Counted from the stretch's first letter, positions 2,059 to 14,441 are shown. The stretch: 64,000 nucleotides of DNA from Bacillota bacterium (GCA_036788815.1 DAIQMS010000002.1:17485-81484); one strand, 5' to 3'. Made by a program: numbers and translations. Notes: generated from the sequence alone by a model not told the origin.

Positions 2059-2075
2059 TTGTACTATAAGCACAA
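2059..2075. promoter_or_regulatory. candidate GntR/FCD operator TTGTACTATAAGCACAA upstream of kduD, overlapping a TATAAG -10-like hexamer
   Basis: Inverted-repeat arms TTGTAC/GCACAA with a 5-bp spacer fit the FadR-subfamily t.GT-N-AC.a architecture. A second copy with identical geometry lies at 13159-13175. Confidence 0.45.
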
Positions 2076-2141
2076 ACATGAGACCCCTTCCTTCAACGGA
2101 AGGGCGAAGATGGTAAAATAACGCCAAGAAGGTTTTCATTT

Positions 2142-2942
2142 ATGGAAATGTCTGATTTTCGTCTTGATGGCAAGGTGGCTTGGGTCACCGGCGCTTCCTA
2201 TGGCATTGGTTTCGCGATCGCGAGCGGTTTCGCCAAAGCGGGCGCCAAGATCATCTTCAATGATTTGAACCCGGAGAAGTGCGAGCTTGGCCGTCAAGCG
2301 TATAAAGCCGCCGGCATCGATGCCTATGGCGACGTTTGCGATGTCACCAAAGAAGAGCAGGTTCAGGAATTCGTGAAAAAGATCATCGAGAAATTCGGCC
2401 ATCTCGACATTCTCGTCAATAACGCCGGCATCATCAAACGCATCCCGATGACCGAAATGGAAGCCAAGGATTTCCGGGCGGTGGTGGATGTCGACCTCGT
2501 TGCCCCGTTCATCGTTTCGAAAGCCGTTATTCCTTATATGATCGAAGAAGGGCATGGCAAGATCATCAATATTTGCTCCATGATGTCGGAACTCGGCCGC
2601 GAGACCGTTTCCGCGTATGCCGCGGCCAAAGGCGGACTTAAGATGCTGACCCGCAACATCTGCTCCGAATATGGTGGCGCCAACATTCAGTGCAATGGCA
2701 TCGGGCCGGGCTACATCGAAACCCCGCAGACCGCGCCGTTACGGGTTCGTCAACCCGATGGCTCGCGCCATCCTTTCGATGCGTTCATCATCTCGAAGAC
2801 TCCGGCGGGTCGCTGGGGCAAGCCTGAGGACCTTCAGGGTCCGGCTGTCTTCCTCGCCTCGGACGCTTCGAACTTCGTGAATGGTCACATCCTCTATGTC
2901 GATGGTGGCATCTTGGCCTACATCGGCAAACAACCGGAATAA
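2142..2942 (+). CDS. kduD: SDR oxidoreductase, gluconate 5-dehydrogenase / 2-dehydro-3-deoxy-D-gluconate 5-dehydrogenase (KduD-like)
   Basis: Motifs VTGASYGIGFAIA, INICSM.SELGR and YAAAKGGLKMLTR match the Gno/IdnO/KduD subfamily closely. Lies at the head of the kdu/kdg operon. Confidence 0.8.
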   Translation: MEMSDFRLDGKVAWVTGASYGIGFAIASGFAKAGAKIIFNDLNPEKCELGRQAYKAAGIDAYGDVCDVTKEEQVQEFVKKIIEKFGHLDILVNNAGIIKRIPMTEMEAKDFRAVVDVDLVAPFIVSKAVIPYMIEEGHGKIINICSMMSELGRETVSAYAAAKGGLKMLTRNICSEYGGANIQCNGIGPGYIETPQTAPLRVRQPDGSRHPFDAFIISKTPAGRWGKPEDLQGPAVFLASDASNFVNGHILYVDGGILAYIGKQPE

Positions 2943-2945
2943 CTC

Positions 2946-3893
2946 ATGAACCAGAAAAAACTCTGCAAAAACCTCTTCCTTGCCGTTCTGGCCTTGCCGT
3001 TTTTGGGCAGTTGCAGCCACAGTGCGGTCGGGGTTTGCTATTGGACGGATCTCGGGACTCATTATGGCAACTACGTTTTCTCGGCCAAAGTCGCTTTGAC
3101 TCAAGGCGCGATCACGGAGGCCACCCTTTCGGAGACCTATCTTCCTGCGGTTTGGGCCCGGGTGGACGCCAATGAGTTTTCCACGAGCACCATCGAGACG
3201 ATTGAAGTCAAAGATGCCTATCTCCTGGATGGGACCCGGGGGACGGTGACGTTCGCCAAACACATTAAAGTCGGCAGCCTTTCGTTCACTGGCACCCTTC
3301 GGGATGAGAGCGTGGATGAAGACACGCCGTATCTGACGCGGGGCGATTACGTCCGCTATCGGTACGATGGTTTAAAAGACACGGACACCGATTCAACCTT
3401 GACCGATCTGAATCGTTATCTGGCTGAGCAAGACACTGGGGTCTATAAACTTGGCGGCCATTGCGGCTGGTATTTCCAGGCCGTGGCTTCCGGCGATATC
3501 CATGCCTATGGTTCGAAAACGGGCAGCACCGATCTTGATGTCGATTACACCTTGGGCTTCCCCGACAAAAAGCCGCTCCGGGAAGATTCGAGCTATTTCA
3601 GCAGCTGGGTTAGCGCGAAAGACGCCCTTTGCACGTACTTGAAGGGCAAAAAATTGAATTACGTCTATTCGGTCACCGATGCCGATGGCAATGTTTTCAA
3701 ATCCCTCAAGATGGCCAGCGACAAAAAGACTTACCTTTACAATCCAGGCTATGCGAATTCGGTCTATTCCGATGACAATTGGGAAACCATCACCGGCTGC
3801 ACGAATGAAGGAATGAGTTTGGATTCGATCAAAGCTTACCTGACGGGCTTCAACGTGGCTTTTGCCTCCGTTGAATATTCGTCTTTGCGATAA
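2946..3893 (+). CDS. lipoprotein of unknown function (inside the uronate operon)
   Basis: Signal peptide with lipobox LPFLGSC. No recognisable catalytic motifs. Confidence 0.65.
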   Translation: MNQKKLCKNLFLAVLALPFLGSCSHSAVGVCYWTDLGTHYGNYVFSAKVALTQGAITEATLSETYLPAVWARVDANEFSTSTIETIEVKDAYLLDGTRGTVTFAKHIKVGSLSFTGTLRDESVDEDTPYLTRGDYVRYRYDGLKDTDTDSTLTDLNRYLAEQDTGVYKLGGHCGWYFQAVASGDIHAYGSKTGSTDLDVDYTLGFPDKKPLREDSSYFSSWVSAKDALCTYLKGKKLNYVYSVTDADGNVFKSLKMASDKKTYLYNPGYANSVYSDDNWETITGCTNEGMSLDSIKAYLTGFNVAFASVEYSSLR

Positions 3894-3968
3894 CGCCGGA
3901 AAGGAGGGCTATGAAATACACGCTTCTCTACCCTTCCTTCAAAACGAAGGCCGTGACTTTTTCCTACG

Positions 3969-4514
3969 ATGACGGCGTTCGCCAAGAAAGAGACGATCGA
4001 AAAGTTTCTCTCCAAACTCCTCAAAACGGCCTATGTCCTCGAGGAGACCCCATCCAATATCTACAAGATCACCTTACCGGGCGGCGTTGCCTCCCAGGCG
4101 ATCCTCGAAGCCTCCTTCCAGGCGGCTTCCGCCGACTTCCAGGGAATGATCAAAGCCTTGATCGTCCCTTGCTTCAAAGAAAGCTTCACCGCCTATCTTC
4201 CCTTCGTGAAAGAAGGACGGATCGCCTACCTCTATGAATTAGGCCGCGACCACCCCGAGATCTACGAGGAGGGGCAGAACCTCATCTCTTCATTCGATGA
4301 GGAAATGCTCTTGACCCTCAAGATCTATATCGAGACCGAACGTTCGCCTTATCTCTCGGCCCTCCGCCTCTACGTTCACCGCAACACGGTGAGCTACCGG
4401 GTGGAACGCTTCGAAGAAAAGAGCGGCATCACCCTCGAGAATTGGGGCAATGCGATGTATGTCTATGAGCTGATCCGAGCCTATGAGAGACTCCATGGCG
4501 GATTCTCTCGCTAA
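3969..4514 (+). CDS. small protein with PucR/CdaR-type C-terminal HTH
   Basis: C-terminal LYVHRNTVSYRVERFEEKSGITL resembles PucR-family HTH_30. A strong-SD ATG at 3911 in another frame opens an ORF that runs into this one (see findings). Confidence 0.5.
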   Translation: MTAFAKKETIEKFLSKLLKTAYVLEETPSNIYKITLPGGVASQAILEASFQAASADFQGMIKALIVPCFKESFTAYLPFVKEGRIAYLYELGRDHPEIYEEGQNLISSFDEEMLLTLKIYIETERSPYLSALRLYVHRNTVSYRVERFEEKSGITLENWGNAMYVYELIRAYERLHGGFSR

Positions 4515-4550
4515 AAATTGCTGATAATACCGAATATCTCGGTAGGAGGA

Positions 4551-5201
4551 ATGCTTATGCAGAAATACGAAATCGTCGAAAAGCTCCTCGATTGCGGCGT
4601 CGTCGCCGTGATCCGGGCGAACGGGATCGAGGAAGCCGAAAAGCTCTCCGATGCTTGCGTGAAAGGCGGCATCAAAGGCCTTGAAGTGACCTTCACCGTC
4701 CCGGGCGCGGAAGATGTGATCGCCAAGCTCGCGAGCGTGAAAGACGCCCCCTATATCGTCGGCGCTGGCACCGTTTTGGATGCCACGACGGCTAGAATCG
4801 CGATTCTCAAAGGCGCGAAATTCATCGTTTCGCCGGCCTTTGACAAAGAAGTCGCCGAGATCTGCAATCTTTATGCGGTGCCTTATATGGCGGGCTGCTT
4901 CACCCTCACCGAAATCATTACGGCGATGAAAGCGGGAGTCGATGTGATCAAAGTCTTCCCGGGCAGCGCGGCTACTCCGGCTTATTTCAAAGCGGTCCAT
5001 GGACCGCTGCCACAAGCGAATCTCATGCCGACCGGCGGCGTCTCTTTGGAGAACGCCAAGGATTGGATCAAAGCAGGCGCGGTGGCGATTGGTACTGGCG
5101 GCGATCTGACCGCTCCGGCCAAGACCGGCGATTATGCCGAAGTGACTCGTCGGGCGAAGGAATTCGTCCGCTTGGTCCACGAAGCGCGGGAGGGCAAATA
5201 A
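4551..5201 (+). CDS. eda: 2-dehydro-3-deoxy-phosphogluconate / 4-hydroxy-2-oxoglutarate aldolase
   Basis: Full-length match to the KDPG aldolase family (GVVAVIRA, LEVTFTVPGA, KVFPG, PTGGV). SD TAGGAGGA precedes ATG 4551. The ORF track start at 4518 lacks an SD. Confidence 0.9.
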   Translation: MLMQKYEIVEKLLDCGVVAVIRANGIEEAEKLSDACVKGGIKGLEVTFTVPGAEDVIAKLASVKDAPYIVGAGTVLDATTARIAILKGAKFIVSPAFDKEVAEICNLYAVPYMAGCFTLTEIITAMKAGVDVIKVFPGSAATPAYFKAVHGPLPQANLMPTGGVSLENAKDWIKAGAVAIGTGGDLTAPAKTGDYAEVTRRAKEFVRLVHEAREGK

Positions 5202-6218
5202 ATGAAATACGCAACGTTAGGCGAGATCATGCTCCGTCTTTCCACGCCCGGCGCGGAAAGATTCGTTCAGGCGCAATCCTTTGACGTGAATTATGGCGGT
5301 GGCGAAGCCAACGTCGCGGTCTCCTTGGCCAATTATGGCTGCGAAGCCGCTTTGATCACGAAGCTTCCGGCGAATGAGATCGGCGACGCCTGCCTCAATT
5401 CGCTCCGGCAGTTCGGCGTCGAAACGAACAAGATCCTCCGCGGTGGCGATCGTCTTGGCATTTATTACCTCGAGAGCGGCGTCAGCATGCGCCCGAGCAA
5501 GGTCATCTATGACCGGGCTCATAGTGCGATCGCTGAAGCCAAAGCCGAGGAATTCGATTTCGAAGCTCTTCTTAAGGATGTGGGCTGGCTTCATATCTCG
5601 GGCATCACTCCCGCGATTTCAAAATTCGCGGCAGAAGTGACCTTAAAAGCCCTCCAAGCCGCCAAAAAGCTTGGGGTGACCACTTCCTTCGATTTGAACT
5701 ATCGGGGCAAGCTTTGGACCAAAGCCGAAGCGCAGGTGTGCCTCATCCCGATGATGAAATACGTCGATTACGTGATCGGGAACGAAGAAGACGCCCAATC
5801 CTGCTTAGGCTTCCAGATGTCGGGCGATGTCACGAGTGGCAAGCTCGATCTTGAAGGCTACAAGCGGATGCTCAAAGAACTCTGCGTGAAATATGGCTTC
5901 AAGGGCGCGGCGACCTCGCTCCGCGAATCCCATAGCGCCAGCGACAATGGCTGGAGCTGCGCGATGGTGGTCGATGGGAAGTTCTATTCCTCGAAGCATT
6001 ACGAGATCCGGATCGTGGACCGCGTTGGCGCGGGCGATTCCTTCTCGGGCGGTCTCATTTACGGGCTGACTCATTACGCGAATCTGCAGTCGGCGATCGA
6101 GTTCGCCGCGGCCGCTTCGGCGCTCAAGCATACGATCCCGGGCGATTTCAACCACGTGTCGGTGAAAGAGGTTGAGACCTTGATGGGCGGCGATGCCTCG
6201 GGCCGGGTCCAGCGTTAG
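5202..6218 (+). CDS. kdgK: 2-dehydro-3-deoxygluconokinase (PfkB family)
   Basis: PfkB sugar-kinase motifs (GGGEANVAVSLA near the N-terminus, GAGDSFSGGLIYGL near the C-terminus). Sits between eda and kduI. Confidence 0.88.
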   Translation: MKYATLGEIMLRLSTPGAERFVQAQSFDVNYGGGEANVAVSLANYGCEAALITKLPANEIGDACLNSLRQFGVETNKILRGGDRLGIYYLESGVSMRPSKVIYDRAHSAIAEAKAEEFDFEALLKDVGWLHISGITPAISKFAAEVTLKALQAAKKLGVTTSFDLNYRGKLWTKAEAQVCLIPMMKYVDYVIGNEEDAQSCLGFQMSGDVTSGKLDLEGYKRMLKELCVKYGFKGAATSLRESHSASDNGWSCAMVVDGKFYSSKHYEIRIVDRVGAGDSFSGGLIYGLTHYANLQSAIEFAAAASALKHTIPGDFNHVSVKEVETLMGGDASGRVQR

Positions 6219-6261
6219 TCTTTAATTTCGTGACGTTTTTCGTTAGAATAATCATCATCTT

Positions 6262-6939
6262 ATGACCAAAGACATCGAAGCTATTTACCAAAAAATCCTG
6301 AACGACATCGTGACGCTCAAGATCCATCCGGGGACCCGCCTTAAAGAGGTTGAGATTTCCGAACGTTTCCATGTTTCGAGGACCCCGATGCGGGATGTCT
6401 TCAAAAAATTGGAAAGTGATAAGCTCTTGGTCATCTATTCCCAATCGGGTAGTTATGTCACCAAGATCGATCTTTCCGGCATCAGCGACATCATGTACCT
6501 CCGCTTCGTGACCGAATGCGAAGTGATGCGCGACGTGATGGACAAAATGACCCCGCATGATATCGAAGTGTTGCGTCACCTGATTTCCTCTTCGAAAGAA
6601 GTGCTGACGGCCGATGGCGGCGAGCGCGATCAGAAAGTCGCGGCTTCGTTCTTCGAGATCGATAACTCTTTCCATCACTACATCTTCGACAAGGATGGCA
6701 AATCCGCCGTCCTTGATCTCCTCAATACGTCGTTCCCGTACTTCAGCCGTTATCGTTTTTTGACCTTCTACCGCGATGAGACCGAGATCTCTGCTCTTCT
6801 CAATGTCCACAATGAAATCGTGGATTGCCTCGAGAAGAAAGACATGCCCCATCTCGAAATGATCATCAAGGAGCATAACTACTCTGGCCTCAACGGCATC
6901 GAGAAAGTCAAAGAGCGTCATCCGGATTACTTCATTTGA
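6262..6939 (+). CDS. GntR-family (FadR/FCD subfamily) transcriptional regulator, probable uronate/KDG regulon repressor
   Basis: N-terminal GntR wHTH ([31 protein letters not shown]) plus a C-terminal FCD-type all-helical domain. Embedded in the operon it is predicted to control. Confidence 0.85.
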
Positions 6940-6952
6940 AAGGAGACTATCT

Positions 6953-7789
6953 ATGATTATGACGACCCGGGACTATTCGTCCCAAGAAGACTATGCCCAT
7001 TACGACACCGCTCGGCTCCGGAAGGAGTATCTGATCGAGGAGCCGTTTGGGAAGGATGAGATCAAACTCGTTTATTCCTATATCGACCGCATCATCGCGG
7101 GCGGGGTGATCCCGCTCAAGAAGAAAGTGGTTTTGGGCGTCGCCCCCGAACTTCGGGCTGAGCACTTCCTTGACCGCCGCGAGATGGGCGTCATCAATAT
7201 CGGCGAGGAAGGCGAAGTCGTCGTCGATGGCAAAGCCTATACCCTCAAGCATTTTGATTGCCTCTATGTCGGACGGGGGACGAAAGAAGTGACATTTGCC
7301 TCAAAAGATCCGCAAAAGCCCGCTAAATTTTACCTGAATTCCGCGCCAGCGCACCGGGCATGCCCGACCAAATTCGTCTCATTGGCCGATGCCGATCATC
7401 GCCATTTGGGCAGCAAGCTTGAATGCAATGAGCGGACCATCAACCGCTATATCATCCCGGGCCGGGTCGAAAGCTGCCAGCTGGAGATGGGCTTGACCCA
7501 TCTTGAGCCGGGAAGCGTTTGGAACACGATGCCGTGCCATACCCATGCGAGACGGATGGAAGTCTATCTCTACTTCGATATGGATTCGGATCAAGCTGTC
7601 TTCCATGTGATGGGGCCGGCCACGGAAACAAGGCACCTTCTCATTCATAACGAGCAGGCGGTCATCTCGCCGAGCTGGAGCATCCATAGCGGTGTCTCCA
7701 CCAAGAACTACACCTTCATTTGGGGCATGTGCGGCGAGAACCAGGATTTCGATGATATGGATAACATCGAAACCAAAGATCTCCGCTGA
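6953..7789 (+). CDS. kduI: 5-dehydro-4-deoxy-D-glucuronate isomerase
   Basis: Near end-to-end similarity to E. coli KduI ([49 protein letters not shown]). 278 aa, as in E. coli KduI. Confidence 0.92.
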
Positions 7790-7796
7790 TTCTGAG

Positions 7797-7840
7797 TTTT
7801 AAAAAGAGGACGTTCCCATCGGGACGCCCTCTTTCTTTTG
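7797..7840. terminator. bidirectional rho-independent terminator between convergent kduI and lipoprotein genes
   Basis: Sequence AAAAAGAGGACGTTCCCatcGGGACGCCCTCTTTCTTTT. A roughly 12-bp stem with one mismatch and one bulge, flanked by an A-run and a T-run. Confidence 0.55.
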
Positions 7841-7849
7841 CCTTAGGAA

Positions 7850-8578
7850 TTAAACGGTTGGAAGAGCAAGAGTTTCTTCGAGGCTTGAGACGGCGAAGGC
7901 CCAATGGACCGTGTAGCCCTTTTGGGTGTAGTCGAAATCGAAACGATCGAGGTAGCCTTCTGCTTTGGAAAGAACCGCGCTGAAGGCGAAATCGGTGACG
8001 TCATTGAGTTTTGAAAGCCCGAAAGCGGCGAGATCGCTTTGAGCGACTTTGGCAGAGAAATGGGCTTCATAGCTTTCAAATACGACTGCCATTGCGCTGA
8101 GTTTAGCGAAGTCATAAGAAAGATGATAGGCCGTCGTTGGCATCGTCACGCCTGCTTCGACGTGGTATTTATTGTCATAGCCTTTCCGATAGACGGCATC
8201 CGCAGTTGAATAGACATCCGTTTCAACCGTAGTGGTATCGGTATTGTCTTCATAGCCTGCCAAGGTGCTCACCCGCGAATAGGTGTGCTCGATTTGGTGG
8301 GTGAGATCAAGGGTTTGGCTTTCGGCGGAAGAGCGATAGACTTCGCTTCCTTTTTTGACAGTTCCGTTCCGGGTGATCTTGAAGCAATCGGTTTTCCTCA
8401 TCAGCGCTTGCTGATAAAACTCGGGGCTAAACGGGGCGATGGAGGAGGAAGCAGCCGAAGTGATCCCTTCGCTTGAAGAGATCGCCGGAGCCGATGAGGC
8501 GCTCGAGGAAGCCGGGGCATTCCTCCCACAGGAGACAAGCGGCAGTAGGGCAAGGATGAAGATGAATTTCTTTTTCAT
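7850..8578 (-). CDS. lipoprotein of unknown function
   Basis: Signal peptide with lipobox LPLVSCG. Ser-rich linker (SSSASSAPAISSSEG). Last gene of the minus-strand lyase operon. Confidence 0.65.
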   Translation of the reverse strand: MKKKFIFILALLPLVSCGRNAPASSSASSAPAISSSEGITSAASSSIAPFSPEFYQQALMRKTDCFKITRNGTVKKGSEVYRSSAESQTLDLTHQIEHTYSRVSTLAGYEDNTDTTTVETDVYSTADAVYRKGYDNKYHVEAGVTMPTTAYHLSYDFAKLSAMAVVFESYEAHFSAKVAQSDLAAFGLSKLNDVTDFAFSAVLSKAEGYLDRFDFDYTQKGYTVHWAFAVSSLEETLALPTV

Positions 8579-8589
8579 GGTGTTGTTCC

Positions 8590-11500
8590 TTAAGCGTCAA
8601 GGCCTCCTCCAATTGCCGAAAGGTCATCAAGGAGTGCAAGATAGGCTTTCTTGCCCTCGGTGAGTTTTTGTAGGGCTTCTGCAGGGATTTTTGCTTTCTC
8701 GGTGTCGGAGAGAACCTGATAGACATCCTCGGCTTTGTAGAGGGGGTAATGGCACTTTTGAATCGAAGCGAGATCGATTTGATCGCTCCAAGCCGTAAAG
8801 GAACTCACTGTGAGTTGGCCTTGAAGATCCGCTAAGCTTCGGAGGCTGAGCGTTGGCTTCTCGGCTGTGGCATCGTAAGCAAAGGTCAAAGAGGTGTCGA
8901 GATCGCGTAGGAAGGTCTGAGTCTCGTAGAACTTCGAAGTATAAACTGCCGGGATCTGAACCGAACGGCCACCAGTGATCGCGTTCTTGATTGGGCTAAT
9001 CGAATCTCCGAGGTCCGAATAATCGTTGTCGAGGTAACTGAGCCCAGAAAGCGAATAAGCAAAGGTCTTGCCCGCTGATCCGGCGGTGGTGGCATCATAG
9101 CCAATCGTCTGACCGAAGTAAGTCGGTTGGGTCATCTCGCGGATCTTAAGGTCGCTATAGACGTTGGTGGCTTTGAGAAAACCGCCGGTCTCGTTACGGC
9201 CTAAGAGGCCTGCAACTTCTTTTTTCGAAGAAAGGACGTCCAAGGAAATCAAGGCGTTGGTGATGTTGAGGTTGGCACCGCTATTTCGCCCGATGAGGCC
9301 AGCGTGAGCTCCACTTTCGGAAATCGTGCCATCGACAATGACGTTGCTCAAGGTAGCCGTCGTTCCCGAAGCTTCGGCACCGGCCAAAAGAAGACCGCAA
9401 TGCTCTGGGCCTGAGACGGCGCTCTTTTCGATGGTCACGTTTTCGAAGAGATTTGTTCCGCCCCGGCAACGCCCAATCACCGTGGCAAAATAGCCATTGC
9501 CGCCTGTGAGGGTACTTTCCTGAGCGATTGAACAATTCGAGAAACGGACATTTTCAATCGTACAACCATAGGAATTGCCGCCTAAAACCGCGACATCATT
9601 GAAACCGGTGATATTGGCGTTTTCGAAGGCGATATTCTTCACGGTTCCGTTGAGATTGAAGAAGATGCCCGTTTTGATTGTGGTGGCGCCATTGGCATTT
9701 GAAATCGAAAGGTTCTTGACCGTGTGGCCTTGGCCATCGAGAACGCCGGTGAAGCTGCGTTGGGTCGTATCGTAATTCCAATAATAAGAAGAGAAATCGA
9801 GGTCGTTCATCAGGCGGAAAGTCGAAGCGAGAGTATCGAGCGAAGAAGACATGTCATAGAACTCTTGGCAGGTCGTGATGTTGACGACGGTGGAAATGCC
9901 TTTGGATGAAACCAGCGAGGAATTGCCGTTCGAATTAGCGATGTAGGCATAAACATCGTATTCGCCTGAATAAGAGATGCTGTCGGTGTCAAGACTGAAA
10001 GAATGGGTGGTGATAGCGCTATTGCCGCTGGTTACGTAGCCGGTTAATGTCGCTCCGCCGGAAAGGATGTCCGCTTCGGTGGGTTCGCTCGAGCCTTTTG
10101 TTAAGACGACATAGTAAAGCGTTCCATCCCCACGGTTCACATTGCCAGTCAAAGTAAGGTACCCATAAGTCGTGGATGTCGTTCCGCTTTTGACGATTCG
10201 GCTCTTGAGATAAGAAGACTTAAACTCGGAAAGGGTGACCGCGGAGTTTGCTTTGGAGAAATAGACGGTTTGGCTGATGGTCTTGCTTTCACCCGTTGAA
10301 ACCAAGGTAAAGACATACTGATAAGTTTGGCTTCCATCTTCCGCCGTGGAAGAGGAAGAAACGATGGTGTAATCGGTGTCTTTGGTTAAAATCGTGGCGG
10401 GAGAGAAACGGTTATGAACCTCGAAGGATGGATTGAGGCCGCTGATCGTTTGTCCCTCTTCGGCGAAAAGGGAAGGTTCGTAGTTCGAGATTGTCCCGAT
10501 TCCTATCGTCCGATTGGGATTCGTTGGGTTGGCTTCCGGAAGGTTGGTCAAAGCGTCGAGTTTGAGGTCAGAAAGATACGTTGTTCCGAATTGGGAGCCC
10601 TTGGCAACGTTGATTCGAATTCCGGTTACATCGCCTTTCGCTCCGCTGGTGACTCCTGAGCCACTCAGATAAGTGGAGGCTCCAGCAGTCATATCAATCC
10701 AGCTCAAAGAGGACCAATCGAAAAGCTTGAAAATCAAACGGCCTGAACTCGGCTTGAAGATAAGGCGGAAGGCCTGCCAAATGCCTTCTTCAGGCGCTTT
10801 TAAGCTGACTGGGACATAGGCTCCTGCTTCGAAATACGAATAGGTTAGCGAAGAAAGGGAGATGCCAGCGACGATGGAGGAAGAGCCGTTCAAGAGCTCG
10901 ATGGCGAGGCCATTGGTTTGCTGAGTGAAAAGGAAAGAGCCCTCGAGAACCGCCTGGTTATTGCTCGAGGCGAGAGCCGAGGATTGAACGTTGGCGCTTC
11001 GAGTATAGGAAAGCGAACTGGCGGTCCGGATGCTTTGGACGGCCAAGGCCTTCTTTGAGATCATGTTATTGATGTTGCCATCGATTTTCTCGACGGGGGT
11101 GGCGTTGCTCATTTCGGCGGAAGAACTTTGCCAGCGGAAATAATTGCTTAGTTCGACTCCGGTTTCGTATTCGCTGAAATCTTCGCTCATGGCCAAAGGT
11201 AAATCCGACTCTTGAGCCGATCCTTTTTTAAGAACAACACCCGCAAAATCCTTGCTCGCGCCGACAGAACCAGAAAGGGTGGCTGTCGCCGTGAGAACGA
11301 AGGATTGATTCGTGTCGCTTCGGGTGACCTTGGCCACATAGCCTGCGGCGCTGTCGGTTGTGACTTTGATGGCGGTGGAATTCGAAGAAGTCCAACTGAT
11401 CTTGGCGCTATATTGTCCCAAATAAGGAAGGCGGAATGAGGAGACGACGTTTTGAAGGTCGACGTTGAGATCGATTAGATTGAGCGCTTCGGCGCATTTG

Positions 11501-11622
11501 CCGTCATTGGCGTCTTCGGCAAGAAGCGCTTGATTTCCAGACGAAACCCCTGCAAAAGTCGCACCGATTCCCCCAATCGCGCATAAAGCCCCTAAAGAGA
11601 GGAAGAGCAATTTCCTTTTCAT
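8590..11622 (-). CDS. large secreted GLUG-motif / parallel beta-helix repeat protein (putative surface polysaccharide-active enzyme or adhesin)
   Basis: Signal peptide MKRKLLFLSLGALCAIGGIGA. Repeated beta-helix-like N-rich rungs (NANITGF, NVRFSNC, NVTIEKS). GLUG-type motifs (AGLIGRNSG, AGLLGRNETGG). Start overlaps the stop of the upstream lyase gene, suggesting translational coupling. Confidence 0.65.
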   Translation of the reverse strand: MKRKLLFLSLGALCAIGGIGATFAGVSSGNQALLAEDANDGKCAEALNLIDLNVDLQNVVSSFRLPYLGQYSAKISWTSSNSTAIKVTTDSAAGYVAKVTRSDTNQSFVLTATATLSGSVGASKDFAGVVLKKGSAQESDLPLAMSEDFSEYETGVELSNYFRWQSSSAEMSNATPVEKIDGNINNMISKKALAVQSIRTASSLSYTRSANVQSSALASSNNQAVLEGSFLFTQQTNGLAIELLNGSSSIVAGISLSSLTYSYFEAGAYVPVSLKAPEEGIWQAFRLIFKPSSGRLIFKLFDWSSLSWIDMTAGASTYLSGSGVTSGAKGDVTGIRINVAKGSQFGTTYLSDLKLDALTNLPEANPTNPNRTIGIGTISNYEPSLFAEEGQTISGLNPSFEVHNRFSPATILTKDTDYTIVSSSSTAEDGSQTYQYVFTLVSTGESKTISQTVYFSKANSAVTLSEFKSSYLKSRIVKSGTTSTTYGYLTLTGNVNRGDGTLYYVVLTKGSSEPTEADILSGGATLTGYVTSGNSAITTHSFSLDTDSISYSGEYDVYAYIANSNGNSSLVSSKGISTVVNITTCQEFYDMSSSLDTLASTFRLMNDLDFSSYYWNYDTTQRSFTGVLDGQGHTVKNLSISNANGATTIKTGIFFNLNGTVKNIAFENANITGFNDVAVLGGNSYGCTIENVRFSNCSIAQESTLTGGNGYFATVIGRCRGGTNLFENVTIEKSAVSGPEHCGLLLAGAEASGTTATLSNVIVDGTISESGAHAGLIGRNSGANLNITNALISLDVLSSKKEVAGLLGRNETGGFLKATNVYSDLKIREMTQPTYFGQTIGYDATTAGSAGKTFAYSLSGLSYLDNDYSDLGDSISPIKNAITGGRSVQIPAVYTSKFYETQTFLRDLDTSLTFAYDATAEKPTLSLRSLADLQGQLTVSSFTAWSDQIDLASIQKCHYPLYKAEDVYQVLSDTEKAKIPAEALQKLTEGKKAYLALLDDLSAIGGGLDA

Positions 11623-11623
11623 G

Positions 11624-13087
11624 TTATTTGTCCTCCCCGTTCAAATGGGCGCCCAAGATGGAGCCATCGGATCCCATTGTGTAGAATGGCGAGGATGTTT
11701 TGACTTTGAGGAAGCCGTGGAGATTAATCGTTCCATCGGCATTCCGGAGGGTGTGGTGGATGTCCACGTGAGTGGAGGCCTCTACGCCACTCGAAGCCAT
11801 TGGTTGTGGGGTGGTTTCGCTTTCAAAAGGATCGCTGATGGTTTGAGAGATCAGCGTGCCTCGGAGGGCATTCTTCGAATAATCGCACTCATCGATCGCC
11901 CCGAACTTAAGCATCGCCAAACCCGAATAGAAGACGGAATACTGAGCGTTTCCTCGATATTGGTCTTTGGAATTTGCCAAAGCGGTTTTTCCAGTGACCG
12001 GGCTCGTCCGATTGCCATCGCAATATGAAAGGACGTTTTTAAAGGTGTTATAAGAGGTAGAGGCATCCCGACAAAGATTGATATTGCCGCATTCCCAATC
12101 CCGAACCGCGTTGTTATAGGATGTGCAATTGGTGAGTGAGATCGTTCCTGGATTGGAATTATCGGTAAAGCCATGAGCCGAGTTATTGAAAGCGATGCAG
12201 TTGATGACTTTATGGGAAACGGGGATGACCTCGCCTCCGAGCTTGAAGCCATTGCCATCGGAATTGGCGGTGCCAATGCCATAGGTGGTCATGCCGTTAT
12301 TGAATGCGACGCAGTTCTGGAGCGTCACCGGTCCGATTGGGCCGCTTTCGGATTTTGCGTAGAGATCCCAGCCATCATCGACATTGTTATAAGAGATGCA
12401 ACCATCGAAAACATTGCCATATCCCGTCGTGAGCTTGCAGGCGAATCCATCCGCATCTTCACCGGTCGGGTCGTGGTTATCATGAGAAGTGCAATGAAGG
12501 ATCAGGTTATTCGTCGGCCATTTATCCAACGTATTATCTGAACTCGAACGCCGACCGAGCTGAAGGCCGGAATCCTGGCAATCATGAATCTCGATGTTCT
12601 CGATGGTGTTGTGGTTGCCACCAATATAGACGCCGTTATCGCCCGCCCCTTTGACTTCAAAATCCTTGGCGTGCCAATACTGGGTGTTGAAACTCAATCC
12701 GCGATTGGCTGAATTGAAGGTCATTCCGGAGAAATCGAAAATGACTTTGGCTTCGGTGCCATCGTCTTTGGTCGCGGGCATGAGCGTCTTCATCTCCGAG
12801 GCACTCGCGGCCGGGAGTAAATCCGTCGTTGAATCAATCTTGATTGGATAGGAATAGGCGTAGGTGCCTTCCATGAGGAAAATCGTTTTGCCCGGATGAA
12901 GCAAAGTGATGGCATAGGCCAAGGTATAGGGGTTCGCTTTCGTCCCCGCCCCATCGGTACCCTTCCCCGTTGGGGAAACATAAAGATCCGATCCTTCATC
13001 GCCCTCGCCTTTGACATTGGCGCCTCCGCAGCTTAAAAGTACGCCAGACATCATCAATACCCATCCGAAATAAAAATGCTTTTTCAT
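11624..13087 (-). CDS. lipoprotein, DUF1565/right-handed beta-helix pectate-lyase-like protein (PL9-like candidate)
   Basis: Lipobox LLSCGG. N-terminal signature LYVSPTGKG.DGAGTKANPYTLAYAITLLHPGKTIFLMEGTY, typical of the DUF1565/PL9 N-terminus. PbH1 rungs (GNHNTIENIEIHDCQDSGL, NCVAFNN, NCIAFNN, NCTSYNN). Start ATG 13087 is preceded by an AAAAGGAAAAG SD. The track start at 13228 is a long upstream extension. Confidence 0.6.
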   Translation of the reverse strand: MKKHFYFGWVLMMSGVLLSCGGANVKGEGDEGSDLYVSPTGKGTDGAGTKANPYTLAYAITLLHPGKTIFLMEGTYAYSYPIKIDSTTDLLPAASASEMKTLMPATKDDGTEAKVIFDFSGMTFNSANRGLSFNTQYWHAKDFEVKGAGDNGVYIGGNHNTIENIEIHDCQDSGLQLGRRSSSDNTLDKWPTNNLILHCTSHDNHDPTGEDADGFACKLTTGYGNVFDGCISYNNVDDGWDLYAKSESGPIGPVTLQNCVAFNNGMTTYGIGTANSDGNGFKLGGEVIPVSHKVINCIAFNNSAHGFTDNSNPGTISLTNCTSYNNAVRDWECGNINLCRDASTSYNTFKNVLSYCDGNRTSPVTGKTALANSKDQYRGNAQYSVFYSGLAMLKFGAIDECDYSKNALRGTLISQTISDPFESETTPQPMASSGVEASTHVDIHHTLRNADGTINLHGFLKVKTSSPFYTMGSDGSILGAHLNGEDK

Positions 13088-13158
13088 CGGTAAAACTTTT
13101 CCTTTTGCGCGTTCAGTATAACACTCGATAAAATGGCTAAAAATCATCCGAAAAACTC

Positions 13159-13175
13159 TTGTGCTGACCGCACAT
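13159..13175. promoter_or_regulatory. candidate GntR/FCD operator TTGTGCTGACCGCACAT in the divergent region between the lyase operon and the Ser-rich lipoprotein gene
   Basis: Inverted-repeat arms TTGTGC/GCACA with a 5-bp spacer. Same geometry as the site at 2059-2075. Confidence 0.45.
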
Positions 13176-13241
13176 ATTTTCCTTGGAAACTTGGTAAGGA
13201 AAAGACCTGAGTTATAGAATGAGCCCAAAGAAGGTTCTTTT

Positions 13242-14441
13242 ATGAAGAAAACAAGTCTTTCGCTTTTGGTTCTTGCCTCGGCTTTGCTCTTGGCTGGCTG
13301 CGGAAAAACGAGTGTGAGTTCTCCGGTGGCTTCCTCGGCGACCCCAGCCTCATCTCAGGCAGCATCCTCTGCGCTGGCGGCGTCCTCGTCGAGCTCTTCT
13401 CCGGCAGTCACCTCTTCAAGTTCGTCTTCCAGTTCCTCGGTGGTCGAGTCTTCGTCTTCCTCTTCTTCGACCGTTCAGGAGCATGATGTGACCGTGAATC
13501 TAGACGTGGCAAAAATGGTCACCGCTTTTTCCGCCCTTACGACAGAACAGTATCACGCCGATAGTAGTGGCAACAAAATCGCGAATCCAGGCATCGAAGT
13601 CAAGGATGACTTCTTCTCGGGTTTTGGCATTGGCGTTGATGCCTCAAAAGGCGTCATTTCCCGTGGCGCAAGCGATGTTGCGACTCTTGACCATCTTATT
13701 CGTTTTACGACGATCGGCGCTGGCTCGATTTACTTAGAGTGCAAATCGGGCACAGGCAAGTCTGTTCGGAACCTTTACCTTGCTGAGAAAGTGGGAGATG
13801 GCTTCAAAGTTCTGAATTGTCAAAAAGAAACGATGAAGGCCAGCGATGCCACCAAGTCCGATACCCTTAAGCCGACCTTCGCTCTTCCGGAAGCGGCGAC
13901 GTATTACGTTTTGACGACCGACAACAGCCAAATTAATAATGTTGCGGTGACCTATGACGAAAACAACGTCAAGGTTGTGACTCCGGATGTCTATGCTCCG
14001 ACCGCCGCTGATCCCTTGATTTTTGATCCGATGGAATATTACCCCATGGCGAGCATTCCTACTGGAACCGCCTTTGGTAGTTTCAGTGTTGTGGGCGCGG
14101 CCTCGTCTCTTGAAATGATGTCGAGCCGCACCATTGGCTCTGAAGCCGGGCCGTGCCATTCGATGGAACTTACTTTGCCGACGACCGATAAAATCTCCTT
14201 CACCACAACGGCGGCGATGACTGTCATGATTTACGCGGAAAGCAACGGCGATGTCGCCGGGAATTGGTCCTGTGTAGATTCGGCAGGAACGGTGGTGACG
14301 ATTGCCTCTCCGAGTTTTGCGACTTCGGATGATGCCAAAAAGAAGCCGGCTGCCGTGACCTTCAACGTTCCCACGGCTGGGACTTATTCGCTTTCGGCCG
14401 ATCAGAAGGCCTTTGTCTTCTATGCTTCGTTAGCTGCCTAA
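13242..14441 (+). CDS. Ser-rich surface lipoprotein of unknown function
   Basis: Lipobox LLLAGCG, followed by a long poly-Ser/Ala linker and then a globular domain. Confidence 0.7.
   Translation: MKKTSLSLLVLASALLLAGCGKTSVSSPVASSATPASSQAASSALAASSSSSSPAVTSSSSSSSSSVVESSSSSSSTVQEHDVTVNLDVAKMVTAFSALTTEQYHADSSGNKIANPGIEVKDDFFSGFGIGVDASKGVISRGASDVATLDHLIRFTTIGAGSIYLECKSGTGKSVRNLYLAEKVGDGFKVLNCQKETMKASDATKSDTLKPTFALPEAATYYVLTTDNSQINNVAVTYDENNVKVVTPDVYAPTAADPLIFDPMEYYPMASIPTGTAFGSFSVVGAASSLEMMSSRTIGSEAGPCHSMELTLPTTDKISFTTTAAMTVMIYAESNGDVAGNWSCVDSAGTVVTIASPSFATSDDAKKKPAAVTFNVPTAGTYSLSADQKAFVFYASLAA

Follow-up and report, generated by a model that had tools for sequence, protein, structure and literature searches.

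A conserved 17-bp dyad before pectin-degradation genes of uncultured Bacilli, distinct from the GntR box and a candidate site for a small PucR-like regulator

Most characterised PucR-type regulators are activators; PutR, for one, recognises a 17-bp inverted repeat, and the site of GabR adjoins the -35 element on its upstream side (PMC7652997). Here we describe a 17-bp inverted repeat, hereafter the dyad, which occurs twice in a 64,000-nt stretch of Bacillota bacterium GCA_036788815.1 (DAIQMS010000002.1:17485-81484) from an uncultured Bacilli lineage; this whole stretch is referred to as the window. One copy (site 1) precedes a plus-strand operon running from kduD to kduI. The other (site 2) lies between a convergent minus-strand operon headed by a PL9-like pectate lyase gene and the divergent gene of a Ser-rich lipoprotein. 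The kduD operon also encodes two regulators, a GntR/FCD protein and a small PucR-like protein that we call the mini-PucR.

PutR (PrcR) of Bacillus subtilis, the activator of putBCP, resembles our model of the mini-PucR in having an HTH_30 helix-turn-helix (HTH) domain and a 17-bp inverted repeat upstream of the promoter. It differs in being a full-length protein with N-terminal PucR, GGDEF-like and HTH domains, whereas the mini-PucR consists of an alpha/beta domain of ~100 aa and the HTH, and its substrate is proline rather than a product of pectin. With a site of the form TTGTGG-N5-CCACAA, PutR would match the dyad at five of six arm positions and in spacer length. CdaR/SdaR of Escherichia coli, a PucR-family activator of glucarate and galactarate catabolism, is the best, though weak, NCBIfam neighbour of the mini-PucR HTH. 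CdaR is a protein of 385 aa with a diacid-recognition domain, its likeness to the mini-PucR is restricted to the HTH, and its binding site is not known (PMC7652997). The closest solved structures are the C-terminal fragment of MabR (Rv2242; 9f80) and BAD_0249 (3onq), which have the GGDEF-like plus HTH_30 layout that is proposed for the mini-PucR, at 15-19% identity and a template modelling (TM) score of ~0.4. MabR itself differs in its extra globin-like N-domain, its actinobacterial origin and its control of fatty-acid synthesis. The GGDEF-like plus HTH fragment of MabR binds DNA, and the recognition helices in its dimer are ~34 Å apart (PMC11617747).

The GntR/FCD protein of the window falls in the group that reads FadR-subfamily operators (B. 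subtilis GntR, UxuR/ExuR type), and its homologues have CTTGTATACAAG over core promoters. FadR-type GntR operators are short palindromes of the form t.GT..AC.a, with GT and AC cores 0-4 nt apart. The dyad differs from them in that its arms stand 7 bp further apart, that it lies upstream of promoters and that it co-occurs with the true box of the GntR homologues. In its predicted layout it may resemble class I activator sites, such as those of CRP at -61.5 and -71.5: relative to predicted starts its centre lies near -59 or -70, with helical phase kept and a weak -35. Class I CRP sites belong to another protein family and have a 6-nt spacer as opposed to the 5 nt of the dyad, whose promoters are predicted.

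The dyad and its place in the promoters

The first-pass annotation had reported two 17-mers in the upstream regions of the kduD and lyase operons, and both were found where it placed them (Table 1). They are the sole matches in the 64 kb to TTGTRC-N5-GCACAW, or to the looser TGTRC-N5-GYACA, and dyad matches with two or three mismatches occur in the window at chance level. The shuffled window is expected to hold 0.00-0.02 pattern matches, but this statistic is inflated because the pattern was defined from the sites themselves, and we therefore relied on comparative evidence (phylogenetic footprinting) instead. Beyond the loci of GntR orthologues, those of PL9 and KduD orthologues supplied many further promoter regions.

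Among relatives, whose loci are labelled L001 and so on, the dyad recurs as wTGTGC-N5-GCACAA upstream of PL9 operons in 16 non-redundant lineages (PL9 identity 51-82%), and it is present before kduD in five promoters, those of the window, L001, L129, L131 and L132. At the PL9 promoters the arms are kept while the spacers differ (TGACC in the window, GCGTG in L002, TCATA in L001, TTATA in L063 and GGTAA in L068), and perfectly palindromic dyads are found in L083 and L091. An alignment of four PL9 intergenic regions contains just two conserved blocks, namely the dyad and the extended -10 of the lyase strand. GCACAA and TTGTAT rank first in an unbiased 6-mer census of 16 PL9 regions, each being present in 11/16, while the top count of any 6-mer in shuffles averages 7.8. 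An anchored matrix carries 1.1-2.1 bits per position in the wTGTGC/GCACAA arms versus 0.1-0.4 bits in the 5-nt spacer. Synonymous sites are saturated between the compared genomes (synonymous divergence, dS, >1), so the conservation of the arms is selective. Judged by this footprint, the two 17-mers are copies of one conserved cis-regulatory dyad before pectin-degradation genes, in agreement with the first-pass annotation, and its proposal that the kduD-to-kduI unit, the PL9 lyase operon and the divergent Ser-rich lipoprotein gene form one pectin/uronate regulon is likewise supported.

The occurrences seen so far are all at pectin/uronate promoters, namely those of kduD, PL9 and the lipoprotein gene and one MalK promoter in L129. 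This extra copy, TTGTGCCTATCGCATAA (L129 7271-7287), lies in the gap before the genes for a MalK-type ATPase and a MatE/GH88 protein, ~35 nt upstream of TGGTTTAAT, and it may mark an additional member of the regulon. Upstream of a kduD homologue in another gene context (L133, ~3930-3950) we also observed ATGTGT-N9-GCACAT, which has arms like those of the dyad but a 9-nt spacer and is not accompanied by a GntR box. Two further candidates were set aside. The recurrent ATGTGGTAAATCCACAA lies inside an ATP-binding cassette (ABC) ATPase gene and reflects coding conservation rather than a regulatory site, and a perfect 17-mer at L050:19642 is unrelated, belonging to a long terminator stem. Searching all intergenic DNA de novo for perfect 6-N4/5/6-6 palindromes gave too much noise for a further motif to emerge.

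The distance between the dyad and the -10 element is fixed. From the proximal arm to the TGn-extended -10 there are 38-40 nt in 10 lineages and 49-50 nt in three, the longer gap being one helical turn more, with the helical phase kept; at all three window promoters the gap is 38-39 nt. The TGn-extended -10 (TGn-TAtACT at PL9) occurs in 12/13 lineages, and the best -35 hexamer matches at three or fewer of six positions in 12 of the 13 promoters. Before kduD, the -10 is kept as TGGTAAAAT or TGATAAAAT in L001 and L129, and the 38-40 nt gap is found in L131 and L132 as well. With promoter positions predicted from consensus and transcription starts set 7 nt after the -10, the dyad centre lies at -58.5 to -60.5 in 10 lineages and at -69.5 to -70.5 in three. 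Because a centre near -59 or -70 is upstream of the predicted core promoter, the layout would be that of an upstream activator site and not that of a repressor operator.

A TATAAG hexamer that overlaps site 1 had initially been noted as -10-like. We rejected it as the -10 of the kduD operon for want of conservation, since L001 has TGGAAG and L129 has CACAAG in its place; what is conserved instead is TGGTAAAAT, 38 nt downstream of the site. Between site 1 and this -10 there is also a hairpin, CCCTTCC-TTCAAC-GGAAGGG (window 2084-2103), which is kept in L001 and not in L129, L131 or L132, and which is probably without function of its own. No family was matched in an Rfam search of the region.

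The GntR/FCD protein and its own box

Both domains of the GntR/FCD protein score above cutoff (PF00392, 52.3 bits; PF07729, 40.2 bits). Its orthologues form a graded series, from 99% down to ~40% identity, in metagenome-assembled genomes (MAGs) of uncultured Bacilli, and around them we found a conserved cluster of the order (ABC-type transporter)-GH28-pucR-like-eda-kdgK-gntR-kduI. Throughout the series the recognition helix and wing do not vary, whether or not a lineage has boxes.

The GntR homologues have a canonical palindrome, CTTGTATACAAG, in front of their own genes or of the operons that contain these. Among 26 distant loci (Lachnospiraceae, Paenibacillus and others), 20 have a TTGTATACAA-type box no more than 400 bp upstream of gntR, the background being 0.14 per kb. 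Where the pucR-like gene is lacking (L004, L006, L024, L028-L032), CTTGTATACAAG palindromes stand directly before eda and the 17-mer is absent, and in L003, L007 and L009 the box is found at internal promoters before pucR or eda. Nothing was found in a literature search for TTGTATACAA together with GntR. A recurrent intergenic palindrome, TCTTGCATGTGnGCAAGA, in pucR-less Bacilli loci (L029 1629, L030 4829 and L031 1629) may be a variant box of the GntR type.

Box and 17-mer share single promoters, at fixed offsets, in L063, L083-L089, L093, L094, L131 and L132. The box is located 15-16 nt past the distal arm, in the -35/spacer of the lipoprotein promoter, in L063, L084-L089 and L094; directly after the PL9 -10 in L083-L086 and L093; and over the -35/-10 of kduD in L131 and L132. 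Since the two stand side by side in the same promoters, they are two different sites, and by its position in these sequences the box of the relatives occupies repressor positions (-35, -10 or +1). They also differ in geometry, for GT and AC are 9 nt apart in the 17-mer, with half-site centres 11 bp apart, and 2 nt apart in TTGTATACAA. The first-pass annotation had let the embedded GntR protein repress both units through the 17-mer, in which it saw the t.GT...AC.a core typical of the FadR subfamily. Neither statement is supported, as a distinct CTTGTATACAAG box tracks gntR and co-occurs with the 17-mer, and FadR-type operators are much shorter than a repeat with GT and AC 9 nt apart. The 17-mer departs from a FadR-type operator in its spacing, in not tracking gntR and in not overlapping a predicted core promoter or start.

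In the 64-kb window there is no GntR box with one mismatch or fewer, and weaker matches are below chance. Where L063 has its box, the window has only TTGGTA, which now serves as a predicted -35. The window GntR protein has the same DNA-reading residues as that of L063, and its gene is under purifying selection, with a ratio of nonsynonymous to synonymous substitution rates (dN/dS) of 0.12-0.21. Comparison with the relatives suggests that the lineage of the window has lost the boxes of its kduD and PL9 promoters by erosion, and the protein presumably acts at sites beyond the window.

Candidate binders of the dyad

Apart from gntR, the cluster contains a single regulator gene, the pucR-like gene, whose conservation goes along with that of the cluster. 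Its product in the window has an HTH_30 domain (PF13556; E = 1.4e-11, 44.4 bits, cutoff 27), while its putative GGDEF-like domain has no Pfam match and no N-terminal PucR domain (PF07905) was detected in the mini-PucR proteins of 181-190 aa. An AlphaFold2 (AF2) model, with a predicted local distance difference test (pLDDT) score of 87.7, consists of an alpha/beta domain and the HTH_30. The best Foldseek matches of this model are the GGDEF-like plus HTH fragments 3onq and 9f80 (MabR C-terminal), which are weak (TM 0.38-0.44), and a profile match to the same two structures covers the HTH. The HTH signature LSALRLYVHRNTVSYR is almost invariant among orthologues, the gene is under purifying selection (dN/dS 0.09-0.22), and one orthologue has been named 'sugar diacid utilization regulator' by the Joint Genome Institute (JGI). 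The MabR recognition helices are one DNA turn apart, a distance that fits the half-sites of the dyad, which are 11 bp apart in adjacent major grooves. By analogy with these relatives, we give the mini-PucR somewhat better than an even chance of being the protein that binds the dyad.

In this model a dimeric regulator would sit on the dyad with its recognition helices in adjacent major grooves and, from a position ~59 bp upstream of the start (~70 bp in some relatives), would assist RNA polymerase where a TGn-extended -10 is paired with a poor -35. Site 2 could serve the promoters of both the lyase operon and the Ser-rich lipoprotein gene, and site 1 would serve the kduD unit. The mini-PucR, with a putative GGDEF-like sensor domain, would presumably respond to a pectin breakdown product, and the GntR/FCD protein would be a second, separate regulator, a repressor with CTTGTATACAAG as its operator. 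The clade would then be under dual control, the activator dyad acting from upstream and the GntR boxes covering the core promoters; the window promoters would have only the dyad left. Taken as a whole, this reading of the dyad as an upstream activator site for pectin and unsaturated-uronate genes, with the mini-PucR as the likeliest binder and GntR as a separate repressor, seems to us about as apt to be right as wrong.

Several observations weigh against it. The promoter positions, and with them the starts, are consensus predictions from the sequence, and the PucR assignment proceeds by elimination and family analogy. PucR-like homologues are few and always adjoin gntR, and a search for genomes with one of the two regulators and not the other gave no discriminating context; since the genes are always together, context cannot separate them. 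In the distant loci L003-L036, no intergenic 17-mer with up to two mismatches lies within 10 kb of gntR, where only chance matches in coding sequence were found, and a looser TTGT-N9-ACAA scan of the same loci likewise gave nothing beyond these; the link of the dyad thus appears, from the loci compared, to be confined to kduD and PL9 promoters. The window mini-PucR is ~9 N-terminal residues shorter than its 190-aa orthologues. In L001 (4942-5148) the PucR-like gene is cut to an HTH-only open reading frame (ORF) of 68 aa, yet both dyads persist. L001 is the closest relative with the kduD-first layout; the arms of its dyads are altered, the distal one before kduD reading TTGTGG and the one beside the PL9 promoter ACACAA, and its lipoprotein gene is also shortened.

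A regulator encoded elsewhere could also bind the dyad, for instance a CRP/FNR-, Rex- or TnrA-like dimer with TGT...ACA half-sites, in which case the PucR-like protein would have another target. CRP reads TGTGA-N6-TCACA and Rex reads TTGTGA-N6-TCACAA, which the TGTGc-N5-gCACA arms resemble; the dyads of L001, kept beside a truncated PucR-like gene, and the lack of proof of a PucR link from genome context speak in the same direction. The spacer, however, is 5 nt and not 6, position 6 is C and not A in 12/16 sites, and the dyad has been seen only at pectin/uronate promoters, the MalK one of L129 included, with just two copies in 64 kb, which suggests a local rather than a global regulator. We consider such an outside regulator unlikely, while taking it seriously. 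Lower still, and in our opinion quite improbable, stands the reading in which the GntR/FCD protein itself binds the 17-mer and represses both units until released by uronate-derived effectors. Its gene does lie within the operon, the arms share with the half-sites of the GntR box their TTGT start and ACAA end, and in the window lineage, where no canonical box is in reach, a gntR gene under purifying selection must bind something. Against this, the helix and wing stay the same whether a lineage has boxes or lacks them, the CTTGTATACAAG box tracks gntR across phyla and shares promoters with the 17-mer, and gntR loci without pucR have boxes and no 17-mer. The step from 2 nt to 9 nt between TTGT and ACAA is moreover a shift of 7 bp, beyond the reach of one rigid dimer, and the dyad is upstream of the core promoters.

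That the repeats are chance similarities, small RNA hairpins or terminator-like insulators is hardly credible. Site 2 was flagged as resembling a terminator on both strands, having a 5-bp stem followed by a T-rich tail, and folds better than its shuffles (z ~ -4), and the 17-mer of L050 mentioned above is part of a terminator stem. But site 1 shows no such folding (z = -0.04), the arms do not covary but are invariant, with a free loop/spacer, and neither site is at a gene end, the genes that flank site 2 being divergent. The fixed distance to the -10 elements also speaks against this reading, and conservation across saturated divergence excludes chance. The RNA element or terminator reading was rejected on the folding data and the Rfam null result.

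Gene content, history of the locus and its meaning

The features of the region are listed in Table 1.

Table 1. Features of the pectin/uronate region, in window coordinates.
Feature	Position	Strand	Remarks
Dyad site 1, 17 bp	2059..2075	.	TTGTAC-TATAA-GCACAA = TTGTACTATAAGCACAA; intergenic; conserved GCACAA arm toward kduD promoter
Predicted extended -10 of kduD unit	2111..2119	+	TGGTAAAAT; 38 nt downstream of site 1; read from sequence
KduD-like short-chain dehydrogenase (SDR)	2142..2942	+	Pfam adh_short_C2
Lipoprotein, 315 aa, function unknown	2946..3893	+	Lipobox LGSC; comes after kduD in L129, L131 and L132 too
Deletion scar, first 28 codons of polysaccharide deacetylase gene	3911..3994	+	Overlaps pucR-like ORF out of frame
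Mini-PucR regulator, 181 aa	3969..4514	+	HTH_30 and alpha/beta, putatively GGDEF-like domain; proposed dyad binder
KDPG/KHG aldolase (eda)	4518..5201	+	Profile matches
2-keto-3-deoxygluconate kinase (kdgK), PfkB family	5202..6218	+	Profile matches
GntR/FCD regulator	6262..6939	+	Pfam GntR and FCD; predicted operator CTTGTATACAAG
KduI, 5-dehydro-4-deoxy-D-glucuronate isomerase	6953..7789	+	NF002091, 428.9 bits (cutoff 250)
Bidirectional intrinsic terminator hairpin	7803..7834	both	Between convergent operons
Lipoprotein, 242 aa, function unknown	7850..8578	-	Last gene of lyase operon; syntenic in L001, L002, L063, L068 and L080-L086
Secreted protein, 1010 aa	8590..11622	-	aBig_2 the sole domain found; downstream of PL9 in every case
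PL9-like pectate lyase lipoprotein	11624..13087	-	Pfam Pel9A-like_beta_helix, Beta_helix
Predicted extended -10 of lyase operon	13115..13123	-	TGTTATACT; 38 nt from site 2; one of two conserved intergenic blocks
Dyad site 2, 17 bp	13159..13175	.	TTGTGC-TGACC-GCACAT = TTGTGCTGACCGCACAT; intergenic; symmetric between two divergent promoters
Predicted promoter of Ser-rich lipoprotein gene	13191..13220	+	TTGGTA-18-TAGAAT; -10 (13215-13220) 39 nt from site 2
Ser-rich lipoprotein, 399 aa, function unknown	13242..14441	+	Divergent from lyase operon; divergent partner of PL9 in at least 12 lineages

Most of the initial gene calls stood, namely eda, kdgK, GntR with FCD, KduI, the PL9-like lyase, the HTH protein and the lipoproteins, of which all four carry a lipobox. 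The SDR called KduD scores 227 bits against the KduD equivalog model TIGR01832, below its cutoff of 339, and passes NCBIfam PRK07097 'gluconate 5-dehydrogenase' with 482.8 bits (cutoff 369), so that its KduD role comes from gene context. The lyase matches PF22842, the Pel9A-like right-handed beta-helix, with 33.5 bits (cutoff 25.2), and is far below cutoff for the NCBIfam PelX and PelN equivalogs. The GLUG assignment of the 1010-aa protein had to be dropped, as no GLUG domain was detected. The claim that one bidirectional hairpin, placed at 7797-7840, ends both convergent operons was borne out at 7803-7834, where the folding energies on the two strands are -22.9 and -23.1 kcal/mol (z-scores -3.5 and -3.9) and both strands have U-tracts.

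In L129, L131 and L132, downstream of kduD and the gene of the 315-aa lipoprotein come a polysaccharide deacetylase gene and those of a GDSL esterase, a MalK-type ATPase and a MatE/GH88 protein. The scar in the window (MKYTLLYPSFKTKAVTFSYDDGVRQER) is identical at 21/28 residues to the N-terminus of the Polysacc_deac_1 gene product of L129. Since this deacetylase start runs into a pucR-like ORF short of ~9 N-terminal codons, the plus-strand operon is, on the sequence comparison, a deletion fusion of two ancestral operons, in which the kduD operon was joined to pucR-eda-kdgK-gntR-kduI. The deletion took out the genes of the deacetylase, the GDSL esterase, MalK and GH88, and with them probably those of the transporter and GH28. 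As a result of the fusion, the candidate activator gene now lies downstream of its own putative site, and the dyad would also drive the gene of the activator. In L129 (from 8488) and L131 (from 8403), the called gene with both MatE and GH88 Pfam matches encodes ~840 aa and represents either an unusual fusion or a pair of genes that the caller joined.

Some further observations concern the relatives. L001 and L002, which come from the same MAG (CTOTU1930), are syntenic, and each ends with the PL9 operon followed by a metallophosphoesterase gene; the GntR protein of the window shares 91% identity with that of L001 and 86% with that of L002, and the CTOTU1930 bin probably mixes two related species. 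L002 (2652-6151) contains a MalK-like ABC ATPase gene amid those of four small membrane proteins of ~180-215 aa without Pfam match, an arrangement also found in L064, L068, L071 and L072. This unusual transporter module is preceded by the genes for a 740-814-aa protein, likewise without Pfam match, and for ABC permeases, and GH28 comes next. A conserved GC-rich hairpin between the gene of the 740-814-aa protein and the first of the small membrane-protein genes (L002 2596-2626, L064 2139-2169, L068 2686-2716) lies inside what appears to be a single long operon and could be a processing, stabilising or attenuating element.

The regulon reconstruction is sound but ordinary, with its regulator corrected. 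It gives a testable map of how pectin breakdown is regulated in an uncultured Bacilli clade of gut and anaerobic digester, comprising two cis-elements, two regulators and a defined set of target promoters, and it corrects a plausible assignment of a regulator to a site, an error of the kind that spreads easily into regulon databases. We would go further only tentatively, doubting rather more than believing that the ~190-aa mini-PucR, hitherto undescribed, is a pectin-responsive activator of a Bacilli-wide regulon in which one dyad activates two divergent promoters, and that the window lineage lost its GntR boxes and was rewired to positive autoregulation alone. If the link to the mini-PucR is true, it would provide a binding motif and a physiological role for a small, uncharacterised branch of the PucR family, for which very few sites are known. 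The locus would then also be a clear natural example of a lineage that has lost its repressor operators and kept its activator site.

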